DNA of 64,000 nt from Candidatus Microgenomates bacterium (lineage in GTDB: Bacteria; Patescibacteriota; Microgenomatia; UBA1400; UBA12108), in contig QEVC01000001.1 in the NCBI GenBank assembly GCA_003576945.1, positions 26,129-90,128 on the forward strand. Reading direction: 5' to 3'. Of the stretch, positions 1,107 through 63,170 are shown one piece after another. The number at the start of each line of letters is the position of its first letter. The first letter of the stretch is position 1. The position numbers and the translations under genes are program-made. The notes beneath the pieces were generated by a model. That model was given only the letters and a program-made list of their open reading frames with translations. It did not search any database and was not told the DNA's origin.

Positions 1107-1571
1107 TTATAACTGATTGATGATATTTGTAGTTGATACTTGGGGATTGTGAGTGTGGACTATTTTGAGCGTGCCACCATACTTTTCGACAAGATTAGCT
1201 TTATTGTCTTGATGGGCAGTATGACTACTGACTGCTAAGTGGGTGGGCTTAACTGCGGCGATTAAACTTTCGAAGGCTTGGGGGTTATTGAAGTCTTTAT
1301 CGAGTGCAAGCAGATAATCCGCGTGGAGAGTGAGTGCTTGTAGCCTGACAGGCTGTGGCTGTACTGGTCTCCCCTCGCCTTTGAGGGCGCGGGCGCGCTC
1401 ATCACTCTCGACGCCAACGATGAGGATGTCGCCTACTTTCTTAGCGGCGCGTAAAAAATTGATATGCTCCGAGTGGAGGAGGTCAAAGAAACCAGTCACA
1501 AGAACAATTGTTTTATTGTCCTGATGAAGCTTGTTAGCCAACGTAGAAATGGTGTTAATGTTATAAATCAT
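1107..1571 (-). CDS. Cytidylyltransferase-like nucleotidyltransferase (RfaE domain II / glycerol-3-P cytidylyltransferase-like)
   Basis: 154 aa. VLVTGFFDLLHSEHINFL is an HxGH-type nucleotidyltransferase motif, and a Rossmann-like layout follows. Confidence 0.5.
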   Translation of the reverse strand: MIYNINTISTLANKLHQDNKTIVLVTGFFDLLHSEHINFLRAAKKVGDILIVGVESDERARALKGEGRPVQPQPVRLQALTLHADYLLALDKDFNNPQAFESLIAAVKPTHLAVSSHTAHQDNKANLVEKYGGTLKIVHTHNPQVSTTNIINQL

Positions 1572-2419
1572 ATTTTTATTTTACTTAATACTCTACTACT
1601 CGGGTTGTTGGGATGAAAAAAGGCGGAGTCTTTTGTGATATATTCGCGCGTAATTCTGCCTTTCATATAGAGATATTGCAAGGTATATAGAAGGTTCTCG
1701 AGTAGTTTTTCGTATAGCCGTAAATCCGTATAGCCGTAAATCCGGGTGGATAATTTGGGGATTTGGTAATTTGGTAAATAGGTATTGATCCAAGAATTAG
1801 AAGAAAGGAGCACAGAGTGGGTATTATTGGGATCGTAGAGCGGGACAGCCTGAATTAATTCGTAGGCAGTGTAGAGCGAGCGGAGGTGAGGTGGAAGTGT
1901 GAATGAATCTGGGGTTAGATAGAGGTTGAGACAGAGTTTTCCCATCACATTTTTGGTATTTCGAGAGCGTCGTAGACCAAGTAGCGTAGTGTAGATTGTG
2001 AGGAGGAAGCGTGTGGTCCAGAGTTTTTTTGACTCGGCAATAATCATTAAATCGATGTCATCATGGCCATCGGTATTTTGCATGGCGAGACTACCGGTCA
2101 GATAAATAGCGCGAATTGAACGAATGCGTGTAAGGATGGGGATGAGTGATTTTGTGTAATCAAAGAGAGGCTTGGACAAGCGTGAATATAGTTTGCGTCT
2201 TCTAACAAGCGATGACTTTTGGGGAAGAAAATAATAGTTAGCTTCTTGCGAGATTGACTTGGACTTAATAAGAGAGTTAATTATTTTACCGAGTAATGAT
2301 TTTGAAACCTGATATTTGATTAGACGAGCGTGGAGCTCTGCGAGGGTTAGAGGGTAGTTAAAATAATCACTATAGGTGAGGGTTTTTTTGATTGCGCTTT
2401 TTAGACCCTGATCGACCAT
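1568..2419 (-). CDS. Hypothetical protein with a Pol-beta-like nucleotidyltransferase motif
   Basis: GSLAMQNTDGHDDIDLMII resembles the GS...D.D nucleotidyltransferase signature. The C-terminal region runs through an octamer repeat and may be over-extended. Confidence 0.35.
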   Translation of the reverse strand: MVDQGLKSAIKKTLTYSDYFNYPLTLAELHARLIKYQVSKSLLGKIINSLIKSKSISQEANYYFLPQKSSLVRRRKLYSRLSKPLFDYTKSLIPILTRIRSIRAIYLTGSLAMQNTDGHDDIDLMIIAESKKLWTTRFLLTIYTTLLGLRRSRNTKNVMGKLCLNLYLTPDSFTLPPHLRSLYTAYELIQAVPLYDPNNTHSVLLSSNSWINTYLPNYQIPKLSTRIYGYTDLRLYEKLLENLLYTLQYLYMKGRITREYITKDSAFFHPNNPSSRVLSKIKI

Positions 2420-19763: not shown

Positions 19764-19800
19764 TTTAAATCCTAAATCCCAAATAACAAATCCCAATTAA
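19764..19800. repeat. Octamer-periodic AAATCC repeats immediately upstream of the 917-aa gene start
   Basis: ttttaaatcctaaatcccaaataacaaatccc. Confidence 0.5.
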
Positions 19801-20504: not shown

Positions 20505-21701
20505 TCAGAGAACTGATTTTACCCTAAGTGAATAGTACAGGAGTGAGAGGAAAATAAATAGTTCGGTAAGGCCGGTGACAATGGCGGCGGCAGAAGCGCC
20601 GTAGTATGGAATGAGGGCTAGATTAAGGCTTAGATTGAGGATGGTGGAAAGGAGAAAGGTTATTAAGACTTGTCGCTCGCGATTTTTGGCAATGAGGTGC
20701 CACATGAGAGGGGCGGTTAAATAAAAGAGGGGAAGAGACAGAGAGAGGAGACGCAATGACTCGAGCGAGATGGTTAGGCCGGGCTTAATTAGGAGGATTA
20801 GCGGAGCAAGGATATAAGTAGCTGATCCAGCAATTGTGCCGAGTGTACCCAGGGAGAAGAGGGTGGTGTTGAGTAGGTTCTTTTTATTTCTTAACATGAG
20901 AGGATAGAGAGAGTTCATGACGAAGACTGGCAAGACCAAGATAACGTCAAAGATGCGGTAGGCAAAACCATACTCACCAACCTCGCTGCTAGGCCGATAA
21001 ACTCCCAGGAGAATGGTGTCTAGCTTGCTACTAAGCACACTTGCAATAAGGATGGCACCGAGAATGGCGGAACTCTTTAGCGTTAAATAAATATCTCGAA
21101 AATGAACGCGAGGCTTGGGGATTTTTGGTAGGAGCAAAAGGGTGGTCGTGGCACTAATGAAATAGCCGATGGTGGTCGCTGCAACTAAGGATAGTAGGGT
21201 GGGGGAATGCCAAAGAGAATAGAGGGTTAGGACGGTGGTAGTAAAAGCGCCGGCAACTGTAGAAAGAGTGGAGCGCCAATATTCCAGATTAAACTGGAAA
21301 TATACATTGCCAGAAGTAAAAATTCCTTGGAAAAAAATAGCCAAACTGCCGAACCAAAAAATAGACTTAACCTCATGGCTATAGCCACCTGGTAAGGTAA
21401 AAATAAGAAGGTTTAAAAGAATGATTGCCACACCAGCTAGAAACAAACGAGTAATGAGGACGCTGCCAAGCCTCGTCTGTAGTTCTTCTTTGTTGCGCGA
21501 TCTACGAAGCGCGTCAGCGTTAAGGCCAAAGTCAATGGAGGTAAAGCCGAGGGCAACTAAAACAACAACTTTGGTGAGATCACCGTAGAGCTCGAGCCCT
21601 GCGAGGCGAATGGTGTAATAGGTTGTAAGTAGGGTTAGGCCGGCACCAAAAAACTTGGCGACGAGTTGGGCGAGCGTGTTACTGGCGACGGCTTTTAACA
21701 T
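20505..21701 (-). CDS. Polysaccharide/oligosaccharide flippase (Wzx/MOP superfamily)
   Basis: 398 aa, about 12 TM, N-terminus LAQLVAKFFGAGLTLLTTYYTIRLAG typical of Wzx/RfbX. Confidence 0.6.
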   Translation of the reverse strand: MLKAVASNTLAQLVAKFFGAGLTLLTTYYTIRLAGLELYGDLTKVVVLVALGFTSIDFGLNADALRRSRNKEELQTRLGSVLITRLFLAGVAIILLNLLIFTLPGGYSHEVKSIFWFGSLAIFFQGIFTSGNVYFQFNLEYWRSTLSTVAGAFTTTVLTLYSLWHSPTLLSLVAATTIGYFISATTTLLLLPKIPKPRVHFRDIYLTLKSSAILGAILIASVLSSKLDTILLGVYRPSSEVGEYGFAYRIFDVILVLPVFVMNSLYPLMLRNKKNLLNTTLFSLGTLGTIAGSATYILAPLILLIKPGLTISLESLRLLSLSLPLFYLTAPLMWHLIAKNRERQVLITFLLSTILNLSLNLALIPYYGASAAAIVTGLTELFIFLSLLYYSLRVKSVL

Positions 21702-22896
21702 GAGAGTAGTTTACTACTTTAAGGTAGATTAAGAGGATTAGTAGTCCCTGGGGTGAAGTGAGGAGATAGTGGTCGAGAAGGAAGAGGGGAAGAACTGGAA
21801 TTATGTATATCAGTAAAGCCGTAAAGCCGTAAAGCCGTGAAACAAAGAATACTACAACCAAGACACCAACAGCTCCAAACCAGGAGAGAAAGAGGGTAAA
21901 ACTATTATGGTCGGGCTGGAGGAGGCGGTGGGAAGGAGAGAGCATAGGATAGGTCGAAATGCTGGCACTAGCACCGGTTCCAAAAACTGGGTAGTTTTTG
22001 ATTACGTCGAGAGAGAGGGTCTGGAGAGAGAGGCGCTCCCCAATGGATAAATCGGCGCGCGGCGGAAGAAAAAAGGAAAAATAGCTGATTGCCAGGGTAA
22101 ATAGTGCTGCAAAATATAGAAGTCTCAGGCGAAGGTATTTGAGAAAATAGAGCGGGATGATAAGACCAAAAAGAGCGAGAGCAGAAGAGTGGCTCTGGGT
22201 GAGGAAGATGCCAAGAGTAGTTGCGATAGTAAATAGTACATAGTACATAGTTGATGGTTTGAGTCGCATAATGATAAGGAGACTGATCACTAGCCAACCA
22301 GCGAGGATGTTGGGGTGACTAAAGGTACCATAGGCTCTCAATATGACTTGGTCCATAAACGTCGCAAGGGCGACCCCTGGCTGCCCCACAGCAACCATTC
22401 GTTCCCCTAGGTAGTAGAGCGGTCCTTGCAGTGCGTGACCTCGTGCTAATTGGGCAATGGAGAGGATAAGTTGAAATGTGGTGGCAATGAGAAGAGGGAG
22501 CTTGAGCGAGATCAAGTGCTTGATAGAGAGTGATTGAACAAATAGGAAATAGAGTAATAAATGAAGAGACCAGGTGAGAGTGGTCATAGGATTGGTGGAA
22601 AAGATGAGGTTGGTGAGCAAAATTAGAGTAATTCCTTCGACCCTAAAATGGGACAATACAGTCTTAGGAAGGATGGCTAAATAAAATAGAATTAGGATGT
22701 CCAGCAAGTAAAGAGTGGGGGCGAGGTAGTCGACCCTAATCCCGTAAACAAGAGACGAGCTGGGCCAAAAGTGAAACCCAAGCTGAGTGGAGGAGAGGAG
22801 AAAGATGAGAAACAGTAGGATGCGTCTAGCTCTTGGGAGCCAAGATAAGACGACGGTCGATCCCAGTGCCCTCAGAATAGGTGGTAAGACTATCAT
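21679..22896 (-). CDS. O-antigen ligase/polymerase-like (Wzy/WaaL family) membrane protein
   Basis: 405 aa and polytopic. The annotated start overlaps the jag 3' end, so the true start may be internal or non-ATG. Confidence 0.45.
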   Translation of the reverse strand: MIVLPPILRALGSTVVLSWLPRARRILLFLIFLLSSTQLGFHFWPSSSLVYGIRVDYLAPTLYLLDILILFYLAILPKTVLSHFRVEGITLILLTNLIFSTNPMTTLTWSLHLLLYFLFVQSLSIKHLISLKLPLLIATTFQLILSIAQLARGHALQGPLYYLGERMVAVGQPGVALATFMDQVILRAYGTFSHPNILAGWLVISLLIIMRLKPSTMYYVLFTIATTLGIFLTQSHSSALALFGLIIPLYFLKYLRLRLLYFAALFTLAISYFSFFLPPRADLSIGERLSLQTLSLDVIKNYPVFGTGASASISTYPMLSPSHRLLQPDHNSFTLFLSWFGAVGVLVVVFFVSRLYGFTALLIYIIPVLPLFLLDHYLLTSPQGLLILLIYLKVVNYSHVKSRRQ

Positions 22897-24025: not shown

Positions 24026-24058
24026 GTAAATCCGTATAGCCGTTAATCAGTAAATCGG
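24026..24058. repeat. 8-nt periodic repeats (GTAAATCC GTATAGCC GTTAATCA GTAAATCG) filling the yidD-yidC intergenic leader
   Basis: Same motif family as the leader of yidC paralogue 1 (1058-1094). Confidence 0.6.
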
Positions 24059-24274: not shown

Positions 24275-24285
24275 GTATTTAGTAT

Positions 24286-24633
24286 TTAGTATTTAGGGTT
24301 AGTAATATCGGAAAGTGCAGAGCTGAGTTCGGAAATGATTTGTTGTTTGGTGGCGGTGGATTTTTTGAGTGGAAGTGGCTTAAATACCACTACTACATCC
24401 ACTTTTTGATCTTTAATTTGAGACCAGAGAGAATCATAAGCCAGACGCTTAAGATAATTGCGGGTGGTTGCGAGCTTGTTCACTTTTTTGGGGACTACTA
24501 CCGCGAGTCGGCTGGCTCGCGAGGTACGTGGTACATAGTACATGGTGCATAGTGGGGTCACGATTTTTTTGCTTCTTGCGCGAAAGCGCAAAAACTCGGT
24601 ACGGAGGGGAAACTTATCTTGTCTGCGAATCAT
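24286..24633 (-). CDS. rnpA: RNase P protein component
   Basis: 115 aa, basic, RNR-like motif region ([10 protein letters not shown]), located between rpmH and yidD. Confidence 0.8.
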
Positions 24634-26266: not shown

Positions 26267-26508
26267 GTTATCCACATTCTTTGTGGATAAGTATGAGGAA
26301 AAGTGCGGGAAAAAATGAGGAAAACTTGAGTAAAAATGAGGATAAGTATGTTATCAACAATTAAATGGAGTTTATCCCCAAGCTTTTCCGGGTTGTTTTC
26401 CACCGCTTCCGCCAGACTTCTATCCACATATCCACAGACCCTAACAACACTATAACTATGTATTAAGCATTTAGTATTTGGTAGTATGTATAAGAAAAGA
26501 GAGGTGTT
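26267..26508. promoter_or_regulatory. Probable oriC: DnaA-box cluster plus three AAAATGAGGAWAA 13-mer-like repeats (candidate unwinding element)
   Basis: TTATCCACA at 26268-26276, TGTGGATAA at 26282-26290, CTATCCACA at about 26420-26428, ATATCCACA at 26429-26437, TTATCCCCA at 26372-26380. Repeats aatgagga(a/t)aa at about 26294, 26314 and 26335, in an AT-rich stretch. Confidence 0.6.
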
Positions 26509-27609
26509 ATGAAAATAGAAATTCTCCAAGAAGAATTGCTTAAAGGGCTTTTAGTTGTGTCGCGTGCAGTTTCAAGCAGGACACAGTTGCCAGTTTTGTC
26601 GGCGGTAAAAATTGAGGCACTGGCAACAGAACTTGTTCTATCAGCGACAGATTTAGAAATTGGGGTAAGGCACATTGTGTCTGCGAAAGTAGATGCACGG
26701 GGAGTGGTTGCGGTACCAGCAAAAACCTTTAGCGAACTACTAACCACACTCGCACCTGGAAAGTTGTCGATTGAGCTAAAAGAGCAAAATCTGATTATTA
26801 AATCTAAAGGCTTCACCGGCAAAATTGCGACAGTAGATGCTTCAGAGTTTCCAACCCTCCCCGAAATGAAAGAATCGCTAATTGGAGTGTCGGCATCTGA
26901 GCTTATGAAAGGGGTTTCAAACGTTGGTTTCGCGAGCGCGAAGGAGTCACTACGCCCTGTGCTTACCGGAGTGCTAATGGAGGTCTCAGAGAGCTTGCGG
27001 GTGGTTGCAACTGATGGGTTTCGACTAGCGGTTTCCACAATTGGAATTAAGGGTGCCACCATCAAGGCGCAGTCTTTGCTAGTCCCTGCACGAGCACTAT
27101 TTGAATGCGGAAAGATTCTTAGAGAGGGAGTTATTAAGATCGGATATCTTCCTGAATCGAAGCAAGTTTTATTTGTGGGAGAGCAAACACAGCTTAGTTC
27201 ACAGATAATTGAAGGAAATTTCCCTGATTACAACAAAATATTACCAAAAGAGTTTGTGACTAGAATGGTTGTCCCAAGAGAAGAGCTGCTTTCAGCGGTT
27301 AAGACAGCACTTGTTTTTGCCAGAGACAACTCAAACATGATGCGCTGGCGGGTGGAGGGTGGAAGACTTATGATTTCATCTAGTTCGAGTGGAAGTGGGG
27401 AAGGATTAGTTGAGGTTATGGTAAAAGCTGAAGGGGAAGAGCCCTTGGAAGTGGTATTTAACGCAAAGTATGTTATCGATTATTTAACTCTTCTGGACAA
27501 TGAGTCGGTGTGGGTTGGGCTTGGCGGAAAGCTGGCTCCAGGAATGATCGCGGAGAGCGAAAATGGCAGGGATAATGCTTTCTACGTGGTAATGCCGATT
27601 AACGCCTAG
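26509..27609 (+). CDS. dnaN: DNA polymerase III beta sliding clamp
   Basis: 366 aa with three-domain clamp architecture. N-terminus MKIEILQEELLKGL... Confidence 0.9.
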   Translation: MKIEILQEELLKGLLVVSRAVSSRTQLPVLSAVKIEALATELVLSATDLEIGVRHIVSAKVDARGVVAVPAKTFSELLTTLAPGKLSIELKEQNLIIKSKGFTGKIATVDASEFPTLPEMKESLIGVSASELMKGVSNVGFASAKESLRPVLTGVLMEVSESLRVVATDGFRLAVSTIGIKGATIKAQSLLVPARALFECGKILREGVIKIGYLPESKQVLFVGEQTQLSSQIIEGNFPDYNKILPKEFVTRMVVPREELLSAVKTALVFARDNSNMMRWRVEGGRLMISSSSSGSGEGLVEVMVKAEGEEPLEVVFNAKYVIDYLTLLDNESVWVGLGGKLAPGMIAESENGRDNAFYVVMPINA

Positions 27610-29540
27610 GAGTTTTGAGTTGTTTTAGGCGATTGACTGATAGGCTCGGTTTTAGTGGGAGGTGCGGCTTGTGCTGGTTGTGCTGGCACAGTGTTTATTT
27701 TTTGAGAAAGGGCCGCCTGAGCTTGTTTAAACTGTTGGGCCTCTGCCTCTTCTTTTTTGCGGAGAGCCTCCCTAGGATCAGTGGTAATTAGAGCATGCTC
27801 CTCGGGGGAGGCCACGACGCGCATGGCAACGTGATTTTGGCCGGCGAAAAAGAGTGATTCACCGACTTCGGCAGTGAGGAGTAGATGTCGTTCTCCTTGG
27901 GAGAGATAGAAAACATTGGCTAGTTTTTCGATGGCACTGGTGCTTTGTTTCATTAAAACCTGAATGCTGGCGTTACTAACGATAGCCTTGCCATGATCAT
28001 CTTTTAAGAAATCTTCAACGTCTTGGGTGATGGTAGTGAGGCCTAAGAAATATTTACGTGCACGTTTGGCGATACCATAGAGAAAGGTGGCGGAGTCTTC
28101 GTTTTTCATAAGATACCAGGCCTCATCAACCACCAAGAGGCGTCGCTTGAGGTCTCTTTTTACTTTGGTCCAGATATAGTCAAGAATAATAAAAATGGCA
28201 GTGGGTCTGAGTTCATCCTGAAGGTTTTTGATGCCAAAAACGGTTAGTTGTTTGCCAAAATCGACATTGCTCTTTTGAGAGAAAATCCCTTGGAAACTAC
28301 CCTTAACATACTTCTCGAGGCGGTCGGCGAGACCGCGAGCCACGGCCTCTTCCATACCAACTAGCGCTTTGTAGAGATCTTCCATGAGGGGTGGCTCGTT
28401 CTTGTGCGTTGTTGGGTCTCGATTGATGCCCTTCATCTGATATGTCATAACGAGCGCTCGATCCAAAAGCGCTTCTTCTTGGGCGGTGACGTCGCCCAGC
28501 ATGATTTTGAGGAGGGAGTGAAGGGAGATGATTTTCATGGCGAGTTCGTTTTCGTCGGGTTCGGCGAGCTGGGGAAGCTCGAAGGGGTTAATACGGTTGG
28601 GGGAGGTAAAACTAAAGTCGATGTAGGTGCCGTTAACGGTCTGGGCCATTTTGCGATATTCGTCTTCGGGATCGATAATAATAACCTCGGTTTCGAAGAG
28701 GAGAGAGCGAAGAATTTCTAGTTTGACCATATAACTTTTACCGGAGCCCGACTTGGCAAAAACTACCATGTTAGCGTTCTCCAGACTAAAGCGATCAAAG
28801 ACAACGAGACTATCATTATGTTCGTTGATGCCATACATAATACCTTCGTTGGCGGTTAGCTCACTACTAGTAAAGGGGAAGGTAGTGGCGAGGCTAGTAG
28901 TGTCCATGTTGCGATTGATTTTTAAGAAATCTTTACCCATGGGGAGAGTGGTTTTAAAACCGTCTTCGATTTGAAGGGTAGCGGTTTTGGCGACGATTAG
29001 GAGAGCACCCAAGGTGGATTTGATGTGGTTGGTGACTTTGTCGAGCACGTCTCTTTTGTCATCACGAATGGTTATATAGAGACCAAACTGAAAAAAACGT
29101 TCGGCGCCTTTGGCAAGCTGCTCTTGTAGACTCCGAGCATCCTCTAGTTTGACCTGGGTATCAATATTAATAATCTTGCCACGCTGAATATCTCCCTGGA
29201 GCTCAGCTTCCATTTCGGCGATTTTGCGCCGCAAGTCCTCGATGACCCCCTTGCCGTCGACGGGATAAATAAACATTGAAATACTAAGAGAGTGGGGAAA
29301 ATTGATTAAGGGTGAGAGCCAGTTGGCGTTAACAAAGCGGGGGTAGCCGGCGACGAATAGAGTGCGGTAGTACGTGTCGTTGATTTTGACGTCAGACCAG
29401 TCGACCTCGATCGCCTCAGGAGCAATAATGTCTTTTACATTGGTGGTACCAGTTGCAAGGATTTGAATGGGGGGAGAGACCGCGGGACCCTGCTCTTCGG
29501 TTTTTTTGTTTTTGCCAGCAAAAGGAAAGGGCAAGTTCAT
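27606..29540 (-). CDS. VirB4/TraC-family T4SS ATPase (Gram-positive PrgJ/ConE-like) with a Pro/Gln-rich C-tail
   Basis: Walker A VVFAKSGSGKSYMV, a Walker B region, and N-terminal IAPEAIEVDWSDVKINDTYYRTLFVAGYPRFVNANWL typical of the VirB4 N-domain. Stop codons overlap dnaN convergently. Confidence 0.7.
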   Translation of the reverse strand: MNLPFPFAGKNKKTEEQGPAVSPPIQILATGTTNVKDIIAPEAIEVDWSDVKINDTYYRTLFVAGYPRFVNANWLSPLINFPHSLSISMFIYPVDGKGVIEDLRRKIAEMEAELQGDIQRGKIINIDTQVKLEDARSLQEQLAKGAERFFQFGLYITIRDDKRDVLDKVTNHIKSTLGALLIVAKTATLQIEDGFKTTLPMGKDFLKINRNMDTTSLATTFPFTSSELTANEGIMYGINEHNDSLVVFDRFSLENANMVVFAKSGSGKSYMVKLEILRSLLFETEVIIIDPEDEYRKMAQTVNGTYIDFSFTSPNRINPFELPQLAEPDENELAMKIISLHSLLKIMLGDVTAQEEALLDRALVMTYQMKGINRDPTTHKNEPPLMEDLYKALVGMEEAVARGLADRLEKYVKGSFQGIFSQKSNVDFGKQLTVFGIKNLQDELRPTAIFIILDYIWTKVKRDLKRRLLVVDEAWYLMKNEDSATFLYGIAKRARKYFLGLTTITQDVEDFLKDDHGKAIVSNASIQVLMKQSTSAIEKLANVFYLSQGERHLLLTAEVGESLFFAGQNHVAMRVVASPEEHALITTDPREALRKKEEAEAQQFKQAQAALSQKINTVPAQPAQAAPPTKTEPISQSPKTTQNS

Positions 29541-42433: not shown

Positions 42434-45312
<2,879 letters not shown>

Positions 45313-45316
<4 letters not shown>

Positions 45317-45666: not shown

Positions 45667-46020
45667 TTAGTAAGCAGTTGGAGGAGTGATGTTGTCGTTG
45701 AGGATCGAGATACCAAAGAAGTATTGGATGATCAACATGACGGCCCAGGCGGAGGCGACGACGGCGAGACCGACGAGTGCAGCGGTGATACGATCGCGCG
45801 CTTCTTGGGTTTTACCTTTATCTCCACCACTAGTGATCCATTGAATACCACCCCAGATGAGGTACATAAAGACGAGGAGCGCAGAGACGAGGAGAGCGCC
45901 TTGGACGGCACCTTTGATCAACGTTCCAATATTGGTGATTGCGACGTTATCTGGCTTGCCGATTGAGAGATCTGGAGCAGCTGGTGCAGCCATAACTTTT
46001 TCAACGATTGAGAATGACAT
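45667..46020 (-). CDS. Small two-TM pilin-like protein, array member 2
   Basis: ...YLIWGGIQWITSGGDKGKTQEARDRITAALVGLAVVASAWAVMLIIQYFFGI. Confidence 0.5.
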   Translation of the reverse strand: MSFSIVEKVMAAPAAPDLSIGKPDNVAITNIGTLIKGAVQGALLVSALLVFMYLIWGGIQWITSGGDKGKTQEARDRITAALVGLAVVASAWAVMLIIQYFFGISILNDNITPPTAY

Positions 46021-46040
46021 ATTTATCTCCTTATGTATTA

Positions 46041-46069
46041 GTACTTAGTACATAGTACATGGTACATGG
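46041..46069. repeat. GTACATAG-type 8-nt periodic repeat immediately upstream of array member 2
   Basis: gtacttagtacatagtacatggtacatgg. Related copies at 22235-22250, 46811-46833 and 53188-53216. Confidence 0.5.
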
Positions 46070-46109
46070 TTATAATTCTAGTATTTCTGATTATAGCAAT
46101 AATATTAAG

Positions 46110-46454
46110 TTATTTGGTAATCCCAATACCAAAGAAGTAATCGACGAGCAGATAGACTGCCCAAGCTGAGGCGACGATGGCGAGACCAACAATTGCCTGA
46201 GTGATTTTGTTCCTGGCCTCCTCGAGCTTGCCTTTGTCGCCACCGGCAGTGATCCAGTTGATCCCGCCGTAGACGAGATACATAAACGTGGCTAGACCTG
46301 CAACCAAGATCACTGCTGAGAAACTACGTGAGACAAAGGTTCCTAGATCTTCATTAATTGCTACCCTAGACTTAACCTGATCGTCGACGTTGATCGCAAA
46401 ACTACCACCTTGGGCGGATGCAGTTTTGATTAGTTTTAAAGTTGTAAAGTCCAT
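46110..46454 (-). CDS. Small two-TM pilin-like protein, array member 3
   Basis: ...YLVYGGINWITAGGDKGKLEEARNKITQAIVGLAIVASAWAVYLLVDYFFGI. Confidence 0.5.
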   Translation of the reverse strand: MDFTTLKLIKTASAQGGSFAINVDDQVKSRVAINEDLGTFVSRSFSAVILVAGLATFMYLVYGGINWITAGGDKGKLEEARNKITQAIVGLAIVASAWAVYLLVDYFFGIGITK

Positions 46455-46467
46455 AAAGTTTTTGAAG

Positions 46468-46863
46468 CTACCCTGCGGTAGGCCAGATAATATTTAATAA
46501 ATCAAGTCCGATGGCAGACTCGATAAACTTAACTACGACGTAGCTGGCTGCTAGGACAGCTAGACCAATTAATCCCTGGGTGATTTTGGCTCTACTCTCG
46601 TCAAGTTTACCCTTGTCGCCACCAGCAAGGATCCAGTTGAGTCCACCCCAAAGAAAGTAGAGAAGGAAGGCTAGTCCACCAACAATTATAATGGTTTGCC
46701 AGAGAGTGGCCATGGTAATTGCGAATTGTTGGGGCGCACTGTCGGGTGATTCTCCACCTGGAATTGCAGTGTTGGTGATCGCGGCGCGCGCGAGAGGGGC
46801 ACGAGAAGATAGTACATAGTACGTGGTACATAGCTGGAGGAAAATGATCTGTTTAAGTTTCAT
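46468..46863 (-). CDS. Small two-TM pilin-like protein, array member 4 (with signal peptide)
   Basis: MKLKQIIFLQLCTTYYVLSS... then YFLWGGLNWILAGGDKGKLDESRAKITQGLIGLAVLAASYVVV. Confidence 0.5.
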   Translation of the reverse strand: MKLKQIIFLQLCTTYYVLSSRAPLARAAITNTAIPGGESPDSAPQQFAITMATLWQTIIIVGGLAFLLYFLWGGLNWILAGGDKGKLDESRAKITQGLIGLAVLAASYVVVKFIESAIGLDLLNIIWPTAG

Positions 46864-52706: not shown

Positions 52707-52856
52707 GGGGTAAATTGCTCACTAAATTAAGTTCGTCGCACCGTCACACAAAAAACCGATCATAAATTTCTGCTGAAATTTTGATCTATGTCTCGTCCTA
52801 CACGGACTGCGAATATTTTTTTGTTGTGAGATACGACTGCACTTAATGTTCGCAAT

Positions 52857-53249
52857 TTACCCAACAATGTCAATTTTGAAGACAACCTGGAGGATCTGGG
52901 CGATCCAGAAGGCGAGAAAGATTACGGCAAAACCAATGAGGGCGCTAGTAATAGTTTTTTTACCTTTTTCCTGGGCTTCTTTATCAGCCGCACCAGCGAG
53001 CATAGTAAAGCCGCCAGAGACGAGCATGCCAAAGAGAATAATCCCAGCGAGGGTTAGGAGCGTGGGGAGAATAGAGCTAATAATACTCCCTAGATTTCTG
53101 GTGTCGACAGATCCACCCCCAAGACCAAGGGCATTTTCGTAGGCACCGTAGTCAGCAAAGTCGGCTGCTCGTGCTTGAGGAACGAGAGTACATAGTACAT
53201 AGTACATAGTACATAGTTGAAAAGAGATATTTTTTAATTTTTTATTCAT
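52857..53249 (-). CDS. Small two-TM pilin-like protein (eighth paralogue, with signal peptide)
   Basis: MNKKLKNISFQLCTMYYVLCTLVPQARA... then MLVSGGFTMLAGAADKEAQEKGKKTITSALIGFAVIFLAFWIAQILQ. Confidence 0.5.
   Translation of the reverse strand: MNKKLKNISFQLCTMYYVLCTLVPQARAADFADYGAYENALGLGGGSVDTRNLGSIISSILPTLLTLAGIILFGMLVSGGFTMLAGAADKEAQEKGKKTITSALIGFAVIFLAFWIAQILQVVFKIDIVG
53188..53216. repeat. (GTACATAG)x3.5 tandem repeat encoding the signal-peptide core LCTMYYVLC
   Basis: Seen directly. Confidence 0.55.
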
Positions 53250-58654: not shown

Positions 58655-58701
58655 TCGTAAATCCGTAGAGCAGTATATCCGTTTATCTGTGTATCTCTGT
58701 G

Positions 58702-59112
58702 TGGAGACGGAGGGCAGTGAGCCCTCGTCCGGAGCGAGCTTTTAACATCATCTACATACTTGTTTAGTGTTTAAGAGTTTTACCTCTCTAAATATAGGAA
58801 ACTAACAACCAACTATTTAGCGAGGGTAGTCGTTTGTTTGGGTCTGAGCGACTAGTTCAGACTTACGGCTCATGTTTGTTTCCGCCTGTTATTTTCCCAT
58901 GAGCGAGTAGATAACGAGACGCAGAATAATTAAGCAGTGTATGCGTAATTAGCTGAACCAAAGATGGCATTTTCCATTGCTAGAAAAGCATTTTTGGCTG
59001 TCTGTACAAAAGATTTGACAGATATTTTTTGACTCTGTTTTACGACTTCTCTAGTCAAAGTCGGTATGCAGATGTTAAAGAGCGATTCGCCTCGTCAAAG
59101 CAAGACGTCCCC
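58702..59112 (-). ncRNA. ssrA: Candidate tmRNA (ssrA), convergent with smpB
   Basis: The minus strand starts GGGGACGTCTTGCTTTGACGAGGCGAAUCG (compare E. coli GGGGCUGAUUCUGGAUUCGACGGGAUU). It ends GGAC-GAGGG-CTCACTG-CCCTC-CGTCTCC-A, a T-arm plus a 7-nt acceptor 3' strand that pairs with the 5' GGGGACG, then the discriminator. About 411 nt. An open frame at nt 40-183 ends ...FGSANYAYTA-TAA and could be the tag. Confidence 0.5.
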
Positions 59113-62628: not shown

Positions 62629-63170
62629 CCGACCGTTAGGTCGAGTGAGGGAGTTACCCCTGTTTCGGCGGGAGTCGTACCAAAGCTAGTAGAATAGGGA
62701 GGTATGGAATTTACCCACCTATCCCATTGCCTCTACCACTGCGAATACCACATAGTTATCACCACCAAGTTTCGGAAGAAAATCTTTAACGAGGGAATTT
62801 TTGCCTACTTTGATATTAAGTTGGCGGAAATAACCGAGCACTATCCTTTGATCAGGTTCCGAAAAGTGAACCATGATCGTGATCACATCCACCTTCTAGT
62901 CTCCATTCCGCCAACAATGAACGTGGGGAGAGCAGTAGGGATCATTAAACAGAATACCGCTCGGAATCTCAAACAAAAATTCCCGTTTCTCAAAGACGTG
63001 TACTGGGGGACTGAAGCAGTGTGGTCGGAAGGCTACTTTGCTAGTACCGTGGGAGCTAACGAGTCAATCATCAAACGCTATATAGAAAATCAGGGTAAGC
63101 AAGAAACAGGGCAAGCTACGCTTGAACTAAATTAACCCCGCGACCGTAAGGTAGTCGGTGATTTAGCGTC
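62629..63170 (+). mobile_element. IS200/IS605-family insertion sequence (tnpA only) with subterminal hairpins
   Basis: Left hairpin CGACC-GTTA-GGTCG at 62633-62646, right imperfect hairpin CGAC-cgtaaggta-GTCG at about 63143-63159, flanking the tnpA ORF. Confidence 0.6.
62704..63135 (+). CDS. tnpA: IS200/IS605 Y1 (HuH) transposase TnpA
   Basis: YHCEYHIVITTKFRK...HDRDHIHLLVSIPP (HuH motif) ...YWGTEAVWSEGYFASTVG (catalytic Tyr region). Confidence 0.85.
   Translation: MEFTHLSHCLYHCEYHIVITTKFRKKIFNEGIFAYFDIKLAEITEHYPLIRFRKVNHDRDHIHLLVSIPPTMNVGRAVGIIKQNTARNLKQKFPFLKDVYWGTEAVWSEGYFASTVGANESIIKRYIENQGKQETGQATLELN

Follow-up and report, generated by a model that had tools for sequence, protein, structure and literature searches.

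Heptanucleotide repeats as the probable source of signal-peptide cores in VirB2-like pilins of a Candidatus Microgenomates bacterium

Eukaryotic signal peptides can contain single-amino-acid repeats, poly-Leu, encoded by CTG or CTC. In bacteria, translational phase variation of the Neisseria opa genes is brought about by CTCTT pentanucleotides repeated within the part that codes for the signal peptide (PMC4534519). In Haemophilus influenzae, the heptanucleotide repeat (ATCTTTC)n lies between the promoters P2 and P1 of hmw1A and hmw2A in 13-24 units, a number that varies between isolates and produces graded expression (PMC8262952). Arrays of VirB2-like pilin genes and their divergence in Patescibacteria, as well as an “essential pilin array” in one Saccharibacterium, are described in parts of PMC12102498. 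Such arrays are thought to be central to the dealings of CPR bacteria with their hosts. The passages of that paper on VirB2 and pilins describe no leader repeats, and it nowhere uses the term “signal peptide”.

The window analysed here, a 64,000-nucleotide stretch of DNA from Candidatus Microgenomates bacterium CPR3, contained short heptamer arrays at the 5' ends of pilin-like genes. In the reading we prefer, with a probability of about 60%, heptanucleotide microsatellites (CTATGTA and its sister CTACTTT) form the h-regions of VirB2-like T4SS pilins, whose leaders are dispensable, and that of a 960-aa protein, and these arrays evolve in concert.

Heptamer arrays and the predicted leaders that they encode

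The arrays were located at the following positions.

53187-53217, minus strand: array in the h-region of pilin 8, perfect (CTATGTA)4.4, encoding LCTMYYVLCT (gene 52857-53249)
46809-46833, minus strand: array in the leader of pilin 4, imperfect, 3.6 units (CTATGTA CCACGTA CTATGTA CTATCTT), encoding LCTTYYVLS (gene 46468-46863)
46039-46070, minus strand: non-coding 5' leader array (CCATGTA CCATGTA CTATGTA CTAAGTA), upstream of the pilin gene 45667-46020
45259-45291, minus strand: sister array in the leader of the 960-aa gene, perfect (CTACTTT)4.7, which is (AGTAGAA)4.7 on the plus strand, encoding LLSTFYFLLS (gene 42434-45316)
22226-22251, minus strand: array in the middle of the Wzy_C gene, 3.7 units (CTATGTA CTATGTA CTATTTA), encoding the hydrophobic segment STMYYVLFT (gene 21679-22896, O-antigen-ligase-like)
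24524-24553, minus strand: imperfect array in rnpA (CTATGCA CCATGTA CTATGTA CCACGTA), encoding 11 residues (gene 24286-24633, cytoplasmic RNase P protein)

The plus strand at 53187-53217 consisted of AGTACAT repeated 4.4 times with 100% matches and a period of 7, which is (CTATGTA)4 on the gene strand. The initial annotation had placed four GTACATA sites and the (AGTAGAA) site correctly and had translated them correctly, although its eight-letter unit was wrong, the true period being 7 (GTACATA; CTATGTA on the gene strand). Every site that it listed was real, but the rnpA site at 24524-24553 was missing from its list. The leader arrays were all within the 5' coding region, at codons 12-21 of pilin 8, 10-18 of pilin 4 and 10-20 of the 960-aa gene, with a unit that is not divisible by 3. 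Array lengths were 3.6-4.7 units; two arrays were perfect, three of the five CTATGTA arrays were impure, and most of the unit variants were A-to-G changes on the plus strand. Retroelement-style adenine mutagenesis was rejected as the source of these variants, for which a genome-wide G-rich plus-strand bias, with one-signed GC skew, was the better fit; one-signed GC skew has been reported for related Microgenomates UBA1400 genomes (PMC7143001). The GC skew of the window was positive throughout 1-60000, in agreement with those genomes, despite two adjacent DnaA-box-like TATCCACA motifs at 26421-26436 between dnaA and dnaN.

A search with the two-unit GTACATA-type pattern (at most 2 mismatches) yielded 14 matches, all on the plus strand and at five places (the leaders of pilin 8 and pilin 4, the 5'UTR, Wzy_C and rnpA), and 0 of 100 shuffles reached 14. 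The expected number was 0.06, which argues against chance. The same sequence was present in independent NCBI MAGs and in many Logan, ENA and JGI assemblies, which argues against an assembly artefact. Gene callers sometimes start pilin 8 at an internal ATG and report 116 aa, as would be expected if the start codon were mis-annotated and the repeat not truly coding; however, the frame was open in three alleles and no in-frame start was found downstream of the array in the gene of the window, and therefore the leader of pilin 8 must be translated. Chance, artefact or a wrong start is thus scarcely credible as an explanation.

The gene and the leader of pilin 8 were as follows.

52857-53249, minus strand: pilin 8, 130-aa VirB2-like T4SS pilin (RIK52236.1 / DPW11_02530)
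53166-53249, minus strand: leader segment of pilin 8, MNKKLKN / ISFQLCTMYYVLCTLV / PQARA, with predicted cleavage before ADFADY

Pilin 8 matched the Pfam family PF18895 (T4SS_pilin) with an E-value of 3.2e-10 and 40.4 bits (gathering cut-off 26.6), and 172 homologues of it were found. The gathering score was also passed by array members 2 and 3, with pilin 4 (21.2), a 138-aa protein (21.3) and a 95-aa protein (23.8) below the cut-off of 26.6; phmmer found 6327 relatives of pilin 4. The repeat-bearing genes belonged to an array of seven tandem PF18895 genes with two more nearby, in a region with a VirB4-like ATPase near dnaA. The ATPase gene (27606-29540, minus strand; DUF87/AAA_10/TraG P-loop) was located beside dnaN and dnaA, and elsewhere in the window, at 58699-59112 on the minus strand, a tmRNA gene adjoined smpB and a Y1 (IS200/IS605-type) transposase gene was found at 62704-63135 on the plus strand. 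The 960-aa protein was a putative secreted protein with a pilin-like C-terminus; a search with its N-terminus gave 4 matches, too few for statistics.

The three repeat-bearing N-termini had the n-h-c layout of signal peptides (a hyphen marks the predicted cleavage point): MNKKLKN/ISFQLCTMYYVLCTLV/PQARA-AD in pilin 8, MKLKQ/IIFLQLCTTYYVLSS/RAPLARA-AI in pilin 4 and MRVVK/IISVLLSTFYFLLSI/PLPVRA-DD in the 960-aa protein. By this layout, the claim in the initial annotation that DNA repeats build the hydrophobic cores of leaders was borne out. Judged by layout, each contained what a Sec-type leader for signal peptidase I requires: a positively charged n-region, a hydrophobic h-region of 7-16 residues and a c-region with small residues at -3 and -1. 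The leaderless orthologues of pilin 8 began with M-ADFADY, which is precisely the predicted cleavage point of pilin 8 in the window and thus supports the interpretation of its N-terminus as a leader. From their sequences, the repeat-built leaders would be exported by the Sec pathway and cleaved. A lipoprotein signal was rejected on inspection of the sequences, because no lipobox preceded the Cys residues.

The array at 46039-46070 was located between a promoter-like site (46126-46099), the score of which was not above the shuffle expectation, and the AAGGAG ribosome-binding site of the gene 45667-46020. A single TAT-to-TAA change separated the ATG within the array from the reading frame of this gene. 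When the array is read as a decayed leader and the TAA is undone, the restored peptide is a poor leader. Array members 2 and 3 (45667-46454, minus strand) retained the cleavage region alone as a mini-leader, MSFSIVEKVMA-AP and MDFTTLKLIKTASAQ-GG.

Period-7 arrays in related species and outside exported proteins

Tandem arrays with three or more units and a self-match of 86% or higher were counted and compared with shuffles. The window had five arrays of period 7 and two of period 8, where 0 were expected, and none of period 6 or 9-12. In 133 kb from 25 loci of related species, seven period-7 arrays were found against 0.2 expected, with none of period 6 or 8-12 and a single one of period 5 against 2.6 expected. 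Six of these seven were in the leaders of pilin-like proteins: pilin 8 in L161 and L187, the 138-aa orthologue in L162, L164 and L165, and the member-3 orthologue in L020. The seventh, judged by position, was in a variable stretch of UppS. Since leader regions made up less than 1% of this DNA by a rough estimate, the association of repeats with leaders was real and clade-wide, and the observation of the initial annotation thus generalises beyond the window. The N-termini of 150 diverse PF18895 representatives showed no excess of lag-7 residue periodicity, which indicates that repeat-built leaders are a trait of the sub-clade and not of the whole family. The clade-wide excess of coding repeats of 7 bases (in the window also of 8), with none of 6, 9 or 12, points to an unusual mutational process.

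An enumeration of heptamers revealed that in 146 of the 2340 cyclic classes (6%) every encoded residue is hydrophobic or small. These classes include CTATGTA, CTACTTT and CTTTCTG, which explains why an array of about four units gives a workable h-region with the first two; the reverse strands of CTATGTA and CTACTTT contain stop codons. A 7-base unit read over three frames gives one 7-residue peptide in any phase, LCTMYYV for CTATGTA and LLSTFYF for CTACTTT. Because all frames yield the same seven residues, the 7-base periodicity within the 21-base period of the peptide cannot be a product of selection at the peptide level. All twelve arrays of the window were located in or before minus-strand genes, which accounted for 60% of the coding DNA.

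The repeats might instead act as DNA or RNA elements in cis, the GTAC-containing heptamers binding a regulator, an RNA-binding protein, an sRNA or a methylase that co-regulates envelope genes, with the coding function secondary. Such a role is consistent with the recurrence of the CTATGTA unit at five places in one genome, one of them a non-coding 5'UTR, with the single orientation of all arrays in minus-strand operons and with a second family of repeats, (CGGATTTA)n, close before several start codons. However, the sites were not conserved between orthologues, relatives having other units or none, and those in wzy and rnpA were in the middle of the gene. The arrays had no stable RNA structure (z-scores -0.9 to +0.9) and no Rfam match, the complementary copy was absent from the rest of the window, and no candidate factor was identified, so a cis-acting function is improbable.

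The repeat was not restricted to export signals. One CTATGTA array was in the cytoplasmic RnpA, and related 7- or 8-base arrays were found in UppS and in a nucleotidyltransferase-like protein, in which no export signal was seen. The rnpA array occupied a variable stretch, where relatives carried PHLIIYHAKNNQRS or PHLTFFYLQHTQ... (PHLTFFYLQHT...) and no repeat. Nearby, (CTAAATA)3 at 24275-24296 extended across the rnpA stop codon and ended at the start codon of yidD. The nucleotidyltransferase-like protein (1568-2419, minus strand; motif DIDLMII) and its homologue in a distant species (L050, 1350-2300) had 7- or 8-base arrays in the same variable C-terminal stretch with unrelated units, (TTACCAAA) and (CGGATTTA/CGGCTATA) in the window and (AGTACAA) and (CTATGTA)3 in L050.

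The second family in the window had a period of 8, (CGGATTTA)n or (CGGCTTTA)n, in 3-4 imperfect units. It was found at 1062-1092, 19766-19800 and 24026-24056, 8-10 bases upstream of the starts of both YidC paralogues and upstream of a 917-aa gene, and also at 1711-1777 inside the ORF 1568-2419 and at 21813-21838 in the C-terminus of Wzy (RLYGFTAL). Similar repeats with different spacing were present upstream of yidC in relatives (L186).

Most matches of a metagenome scan for (CTATGTA)3 looked like non-coding simple repeats, and many of the contigs were not bacterial-looking. The few coding cases (an IleRS-like helix, an epimerase, a membrane protein and one other CPR-type signal peptide, in L042) did not add up to a family. 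No long coding (LCTMYYV)n array was found among 5.8 billion proteins, and a search with (YVLCTMY)6 returned 31 short spurious ORFs only.

In the preferred reading, in which microsatellites form the cores of dispensable leaders, the copies in Wzy, RnpA and the 5'UTR would be CTATGTA repeats that landed in other permissive places. Independent slippage does not account for the occurrence of this unit at five unlinked places in one genome, which counts against the reading as it stands; ectopic conversion would be a likely route to the copies in Wzy, RnpA and the 5'UTR. Taken by locus, three of the five CTATGTA arrays could plausibly have arisen by conversion between paralogous leaders, and an origin of the rnpA or wzy copies by gene conversion is conjecture; the flanks of the array loci, including that of rnpA, had weak similarity to each other. 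A further difficulty is that the arrays were far more enriched in leaders than in the much commoner transmembrane segments, which makes a pure filter for permissive sites insufficient.

Copy number and reading frame

Pilin 8 is in frame with 1, 4 or 7 units alone, which would give h-regions of about 9, 16 and 23 residues, and 2, 3, 5, 6 or 8 units lead to truncated products of 27-57 aa. The initial annotation had proposed that slippage changes the length of the signal peptide in frame and thereby tunes the efficiency of export. In-frame states at 1, 4 and 7 units do exist, but one 7-base unit more or fewer shifts the frame of the gene instead of lengthening the leader, and jumps of exactly three units would be needed. 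Single-unit slips are the usual slippage event. About four units were kept in all aligned leaders, and the 90%-identity cluster of pilin 8 (15 members) had lengths of 130, 116, 103 and 102 only, without the 109-, 123- or 137-aa variants. Graded leader length is therefore mechanically unlikely, and as an explanation of the arrays we consider it very improbable; the relevant model is an ON/OFF frameshift like that of opa.

Contigs were fetched with repeat-independent anchors, the neighbouring proteins, from NCBI MAGs and many Logan runs that covered many independent samples. In these consensus assemblies, in which minority length variants are invisible, no length variants were found in 25 contigs for pilin 8 (two alleles, both of 28 bases and one T-to-C change apart), in 8 contigs for pilin 4, in 8 for the 5'UTR array or in 4 for the 960-aa array, with one allele for each of the last three. 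Three further loci from a second look-up (24 contigs, 21 of them collapsed without a sequence check) had unchanged 960-aa and 5'UTR arrays. Seven more contigs of this species had identical rnpA and yidD/yidC arrays, and those that reached the Wzy site had an identical array there. A third allele of pilin 8, known from the protein alone (P0126), had the sequence LFTMYYALCT, which implies two changed units and still four units in total. The three alleles, with point changes and no change of length, indicate that point mutations inside the array have outpaced length changes.

Two kinds of shorter protein were considered as switched alleles and rejected. The 116-aa proteins beginning with MYYVLCT were not frameshift alleles, since their DNA had the same 4 units and the gene caller had used an internal ATG, and the 103-aa proteins beginning with MADFADY were not OFF alleles, since their DNA showed a clean absence of the leader with its own ATG. 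No out-of-frame allele was found in any contig or orthologue examined. Two Logan contigs (L026 and L033) ended inside arrays, not at the branch point that a longer allele would create, and they are at best a weak hint of length variants. Position 52812, beside a T7 run in the intergenic region of pilin 8 and uppS, was the common end point of many independent Logan contigs of the species and may mark a homopolymer of variable length or a breakpoint between strains.

These results bear on the possibility that the arrays are contingency loci of the opa type, in which slipped-strand mispairing changes the reading frame of pilin genes (ON with 1, 4 or 7 units), so that an epibiotic CPR bacterium would express its surface pilins stochastically and in varying combinations. 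Several features fit such a system: the unit is non-triplet and lies in leader-coding 5' sequence, the genes form a surface-protein family with several paralogues, and the arrays are strongly concentrated in pilin leaders; the CTCTT repeats in the signal-peptide coding region of opa are a precedent (PMC4534519). The perfect arrays, a frame arithmetic suited to ON/OFF switching, units homogenised by lineage as a trace of past slippage and the contig ends of L026 and L033 also favour it. Against it, besides the constant lengths in the 25, 8, 8 and 4 contigs, the four units kept by three pilin-8 alleles despite point changes and the lack of out-of-frame orthologues, three of the five CTATGTA arrays were already impure and the repeat was also found in the housekeeping gene rnpA. 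Array length argues in the same direction, since 3.6-4.7 units is far from the 13-24 units of the hmw heptamer tracts (PMC8262952). Taken together, this makes the contingency model, which is the main rival of the preferred reading, doubtful. Other known contingency loci also have unit counts above those found here.

The version of this model that extends to the whole Microgenomates clade, with heptamer arrays in VirB2-like pilin leaders as a contingency system (1, 4 and 7 units ON, intermediate numbers OFF) whose turnover would also re-create and destroy signal peptides, is tentative and on balance unlikely. If true, it would to our knowledge be the first case of phase variation by simple repeats known from the Candidate Phyla Radiation. 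Length variants in reads would make opa-like phase variation testable in an uncultured phylum. The initial annotation had asked for repeat-number polymorphism in metagenomic reads or related strains, and neither the 25, 8, 8 and 4 contigs nor the three alleles of pilin 8 differed in copy number. It had named constant copy number and repeats in non-exported proteins as signs against its export switch, and both were largely what was found. According to the best explanation, the arrays of the present population would be fixed at in-frame counts and decaying by point mutation, and would not constitute an active high-frequency switch.

Turnover and loss of the leaders, and comparison with known systems

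Eight leaders could be aligned in register: pilin 8 from four species, pilin 4 from two, one member 3 and the 960-aa protein. They shared an A-rich start, about four heptamer units in common columns (consensus (CTTTCTA)n) and a CTCGCG...GCGCC cleavage region. The units were identical or nearly so inside one gene and different between orthologues. For pilin 8, the window had (CTATGTA)4, L187 had a perfect (CTGCGTA)3 and L190 had (CTTTCTA)2 with decayed units; the member-3 orthologue of L020 (16575-17369) had a full leader on (CTTTCTG)4, whereas member 3 of the window had no h-region. Because two identical substitutions in every unit cannot arise independently, the arrays must have evolved in concert, by contraction and expansion or by conversion within the array. 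The slippage suggested by the initial annotation is thus evident over evolutionary time, as remodelling recorded in lineage-specific units and in-register leaders. Two arrays were still perfect, which means that homogenisation is recent or ongoing and counts against the preferred reading. In the L020 orthologue of the 960-aa protein, the start of the leader was shared and the h-region was an ordinary one without a repeat (MRLLKSLAKIAILLLIISVTPKSLVFA), which indicates that the array of the 960-aa protein took the place of the core in a leader that already existed.

Loss of the leader was common. About 113 of 132 homologues of pilin 8 were of leaderless or mini-leader length, and 14 had a full leader. 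In the DNA of leaderless orthologues, ATG-GCA-GAT followed straight after the stop codon of the upstream gene. Mini-leaders such as MFVSKVRAQ-D and MQLIPRAFA-ID, which keep the cleavage region alone, were found in other orthologues, and the form M.LI.KA.AQ-D recurred in pilin-8 orthologues from many species. Judged from these sequences, the leader appears dispensable in most orthologues, which would explain the free remodelling of its core.

In the pilin-8 orthologue of L161 (2440-2520), the leader consisted of two adjacent heptamer arrays, (AGATTCC)4 followed by (CTAGYAT)4.5. The first encoded the non-hydrophobic RFQIPDSRFQ, and the second had a TGG codon in place of the TAG stop that the pure unit would give.

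The preferred reading can then be put as follows. The leader would be a module common to the pilin paralogues, with a Lys/Asn-rich start, about four units and a cleavage region of the R-A-P-L-A-R-A type. Slippage or gene conversion would have shortened, lengthened and homogenised its arrays time and again, so that each lineage or gene received its own unit. With the leader dispensable, and lost wholly or down to the cleavage region by most orthologues, the h-region would be weakly constrained and would tolerate turnover. We infer slippage as the mechanism, and neutrality. On this basis, a non-triplet microsatellite can supply the h-regions of leaders, so that simple-sequence DNA makes a functional protein module, and whole signal peptides may arise, be rebuilt and vanish between close relatives.

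Among the described systems, opa is similar in that the genes of a multi-copy surface-protein family have a non-triplet repeat at the 5' end, where it itself encodes residues of the leader and a change of one unit shifts the frame. The unit of opa has 5 bases, whereas here it has 7, in about 4 copies, and no copy-number polymorphism or OFF alleles were found; CTCTT is kept in opa, whereas here the unit differs between orthologues and the leader is dispensable in most of them, in an uncultured CPR bacterium. The hmw genes, which are of the adhesin type, also have a heptanucleotide repeat upstream of the gene, in the 5'UTR of one hmw transcript, which the array at 46039-46070 resembles by position; unlike the hmw tracts, this array consists of 4 impure units and was identical in 8 contigs. 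The repeat-bearing genes of the window form a tandem VirB2-like array of the kind described in parts of PMC12102498, near a VirB4-like ATPase and dnaA. The poly-Leu repeats of eukaryotic signal peptides consist of triplets and change length in frame, whereas the unit here is non-triplet and encodes a mixed peptide of 7 residues. In both cases, simple-sequence DNA supplies the h-region and is tolerated since hydrophobicity and length suffice.
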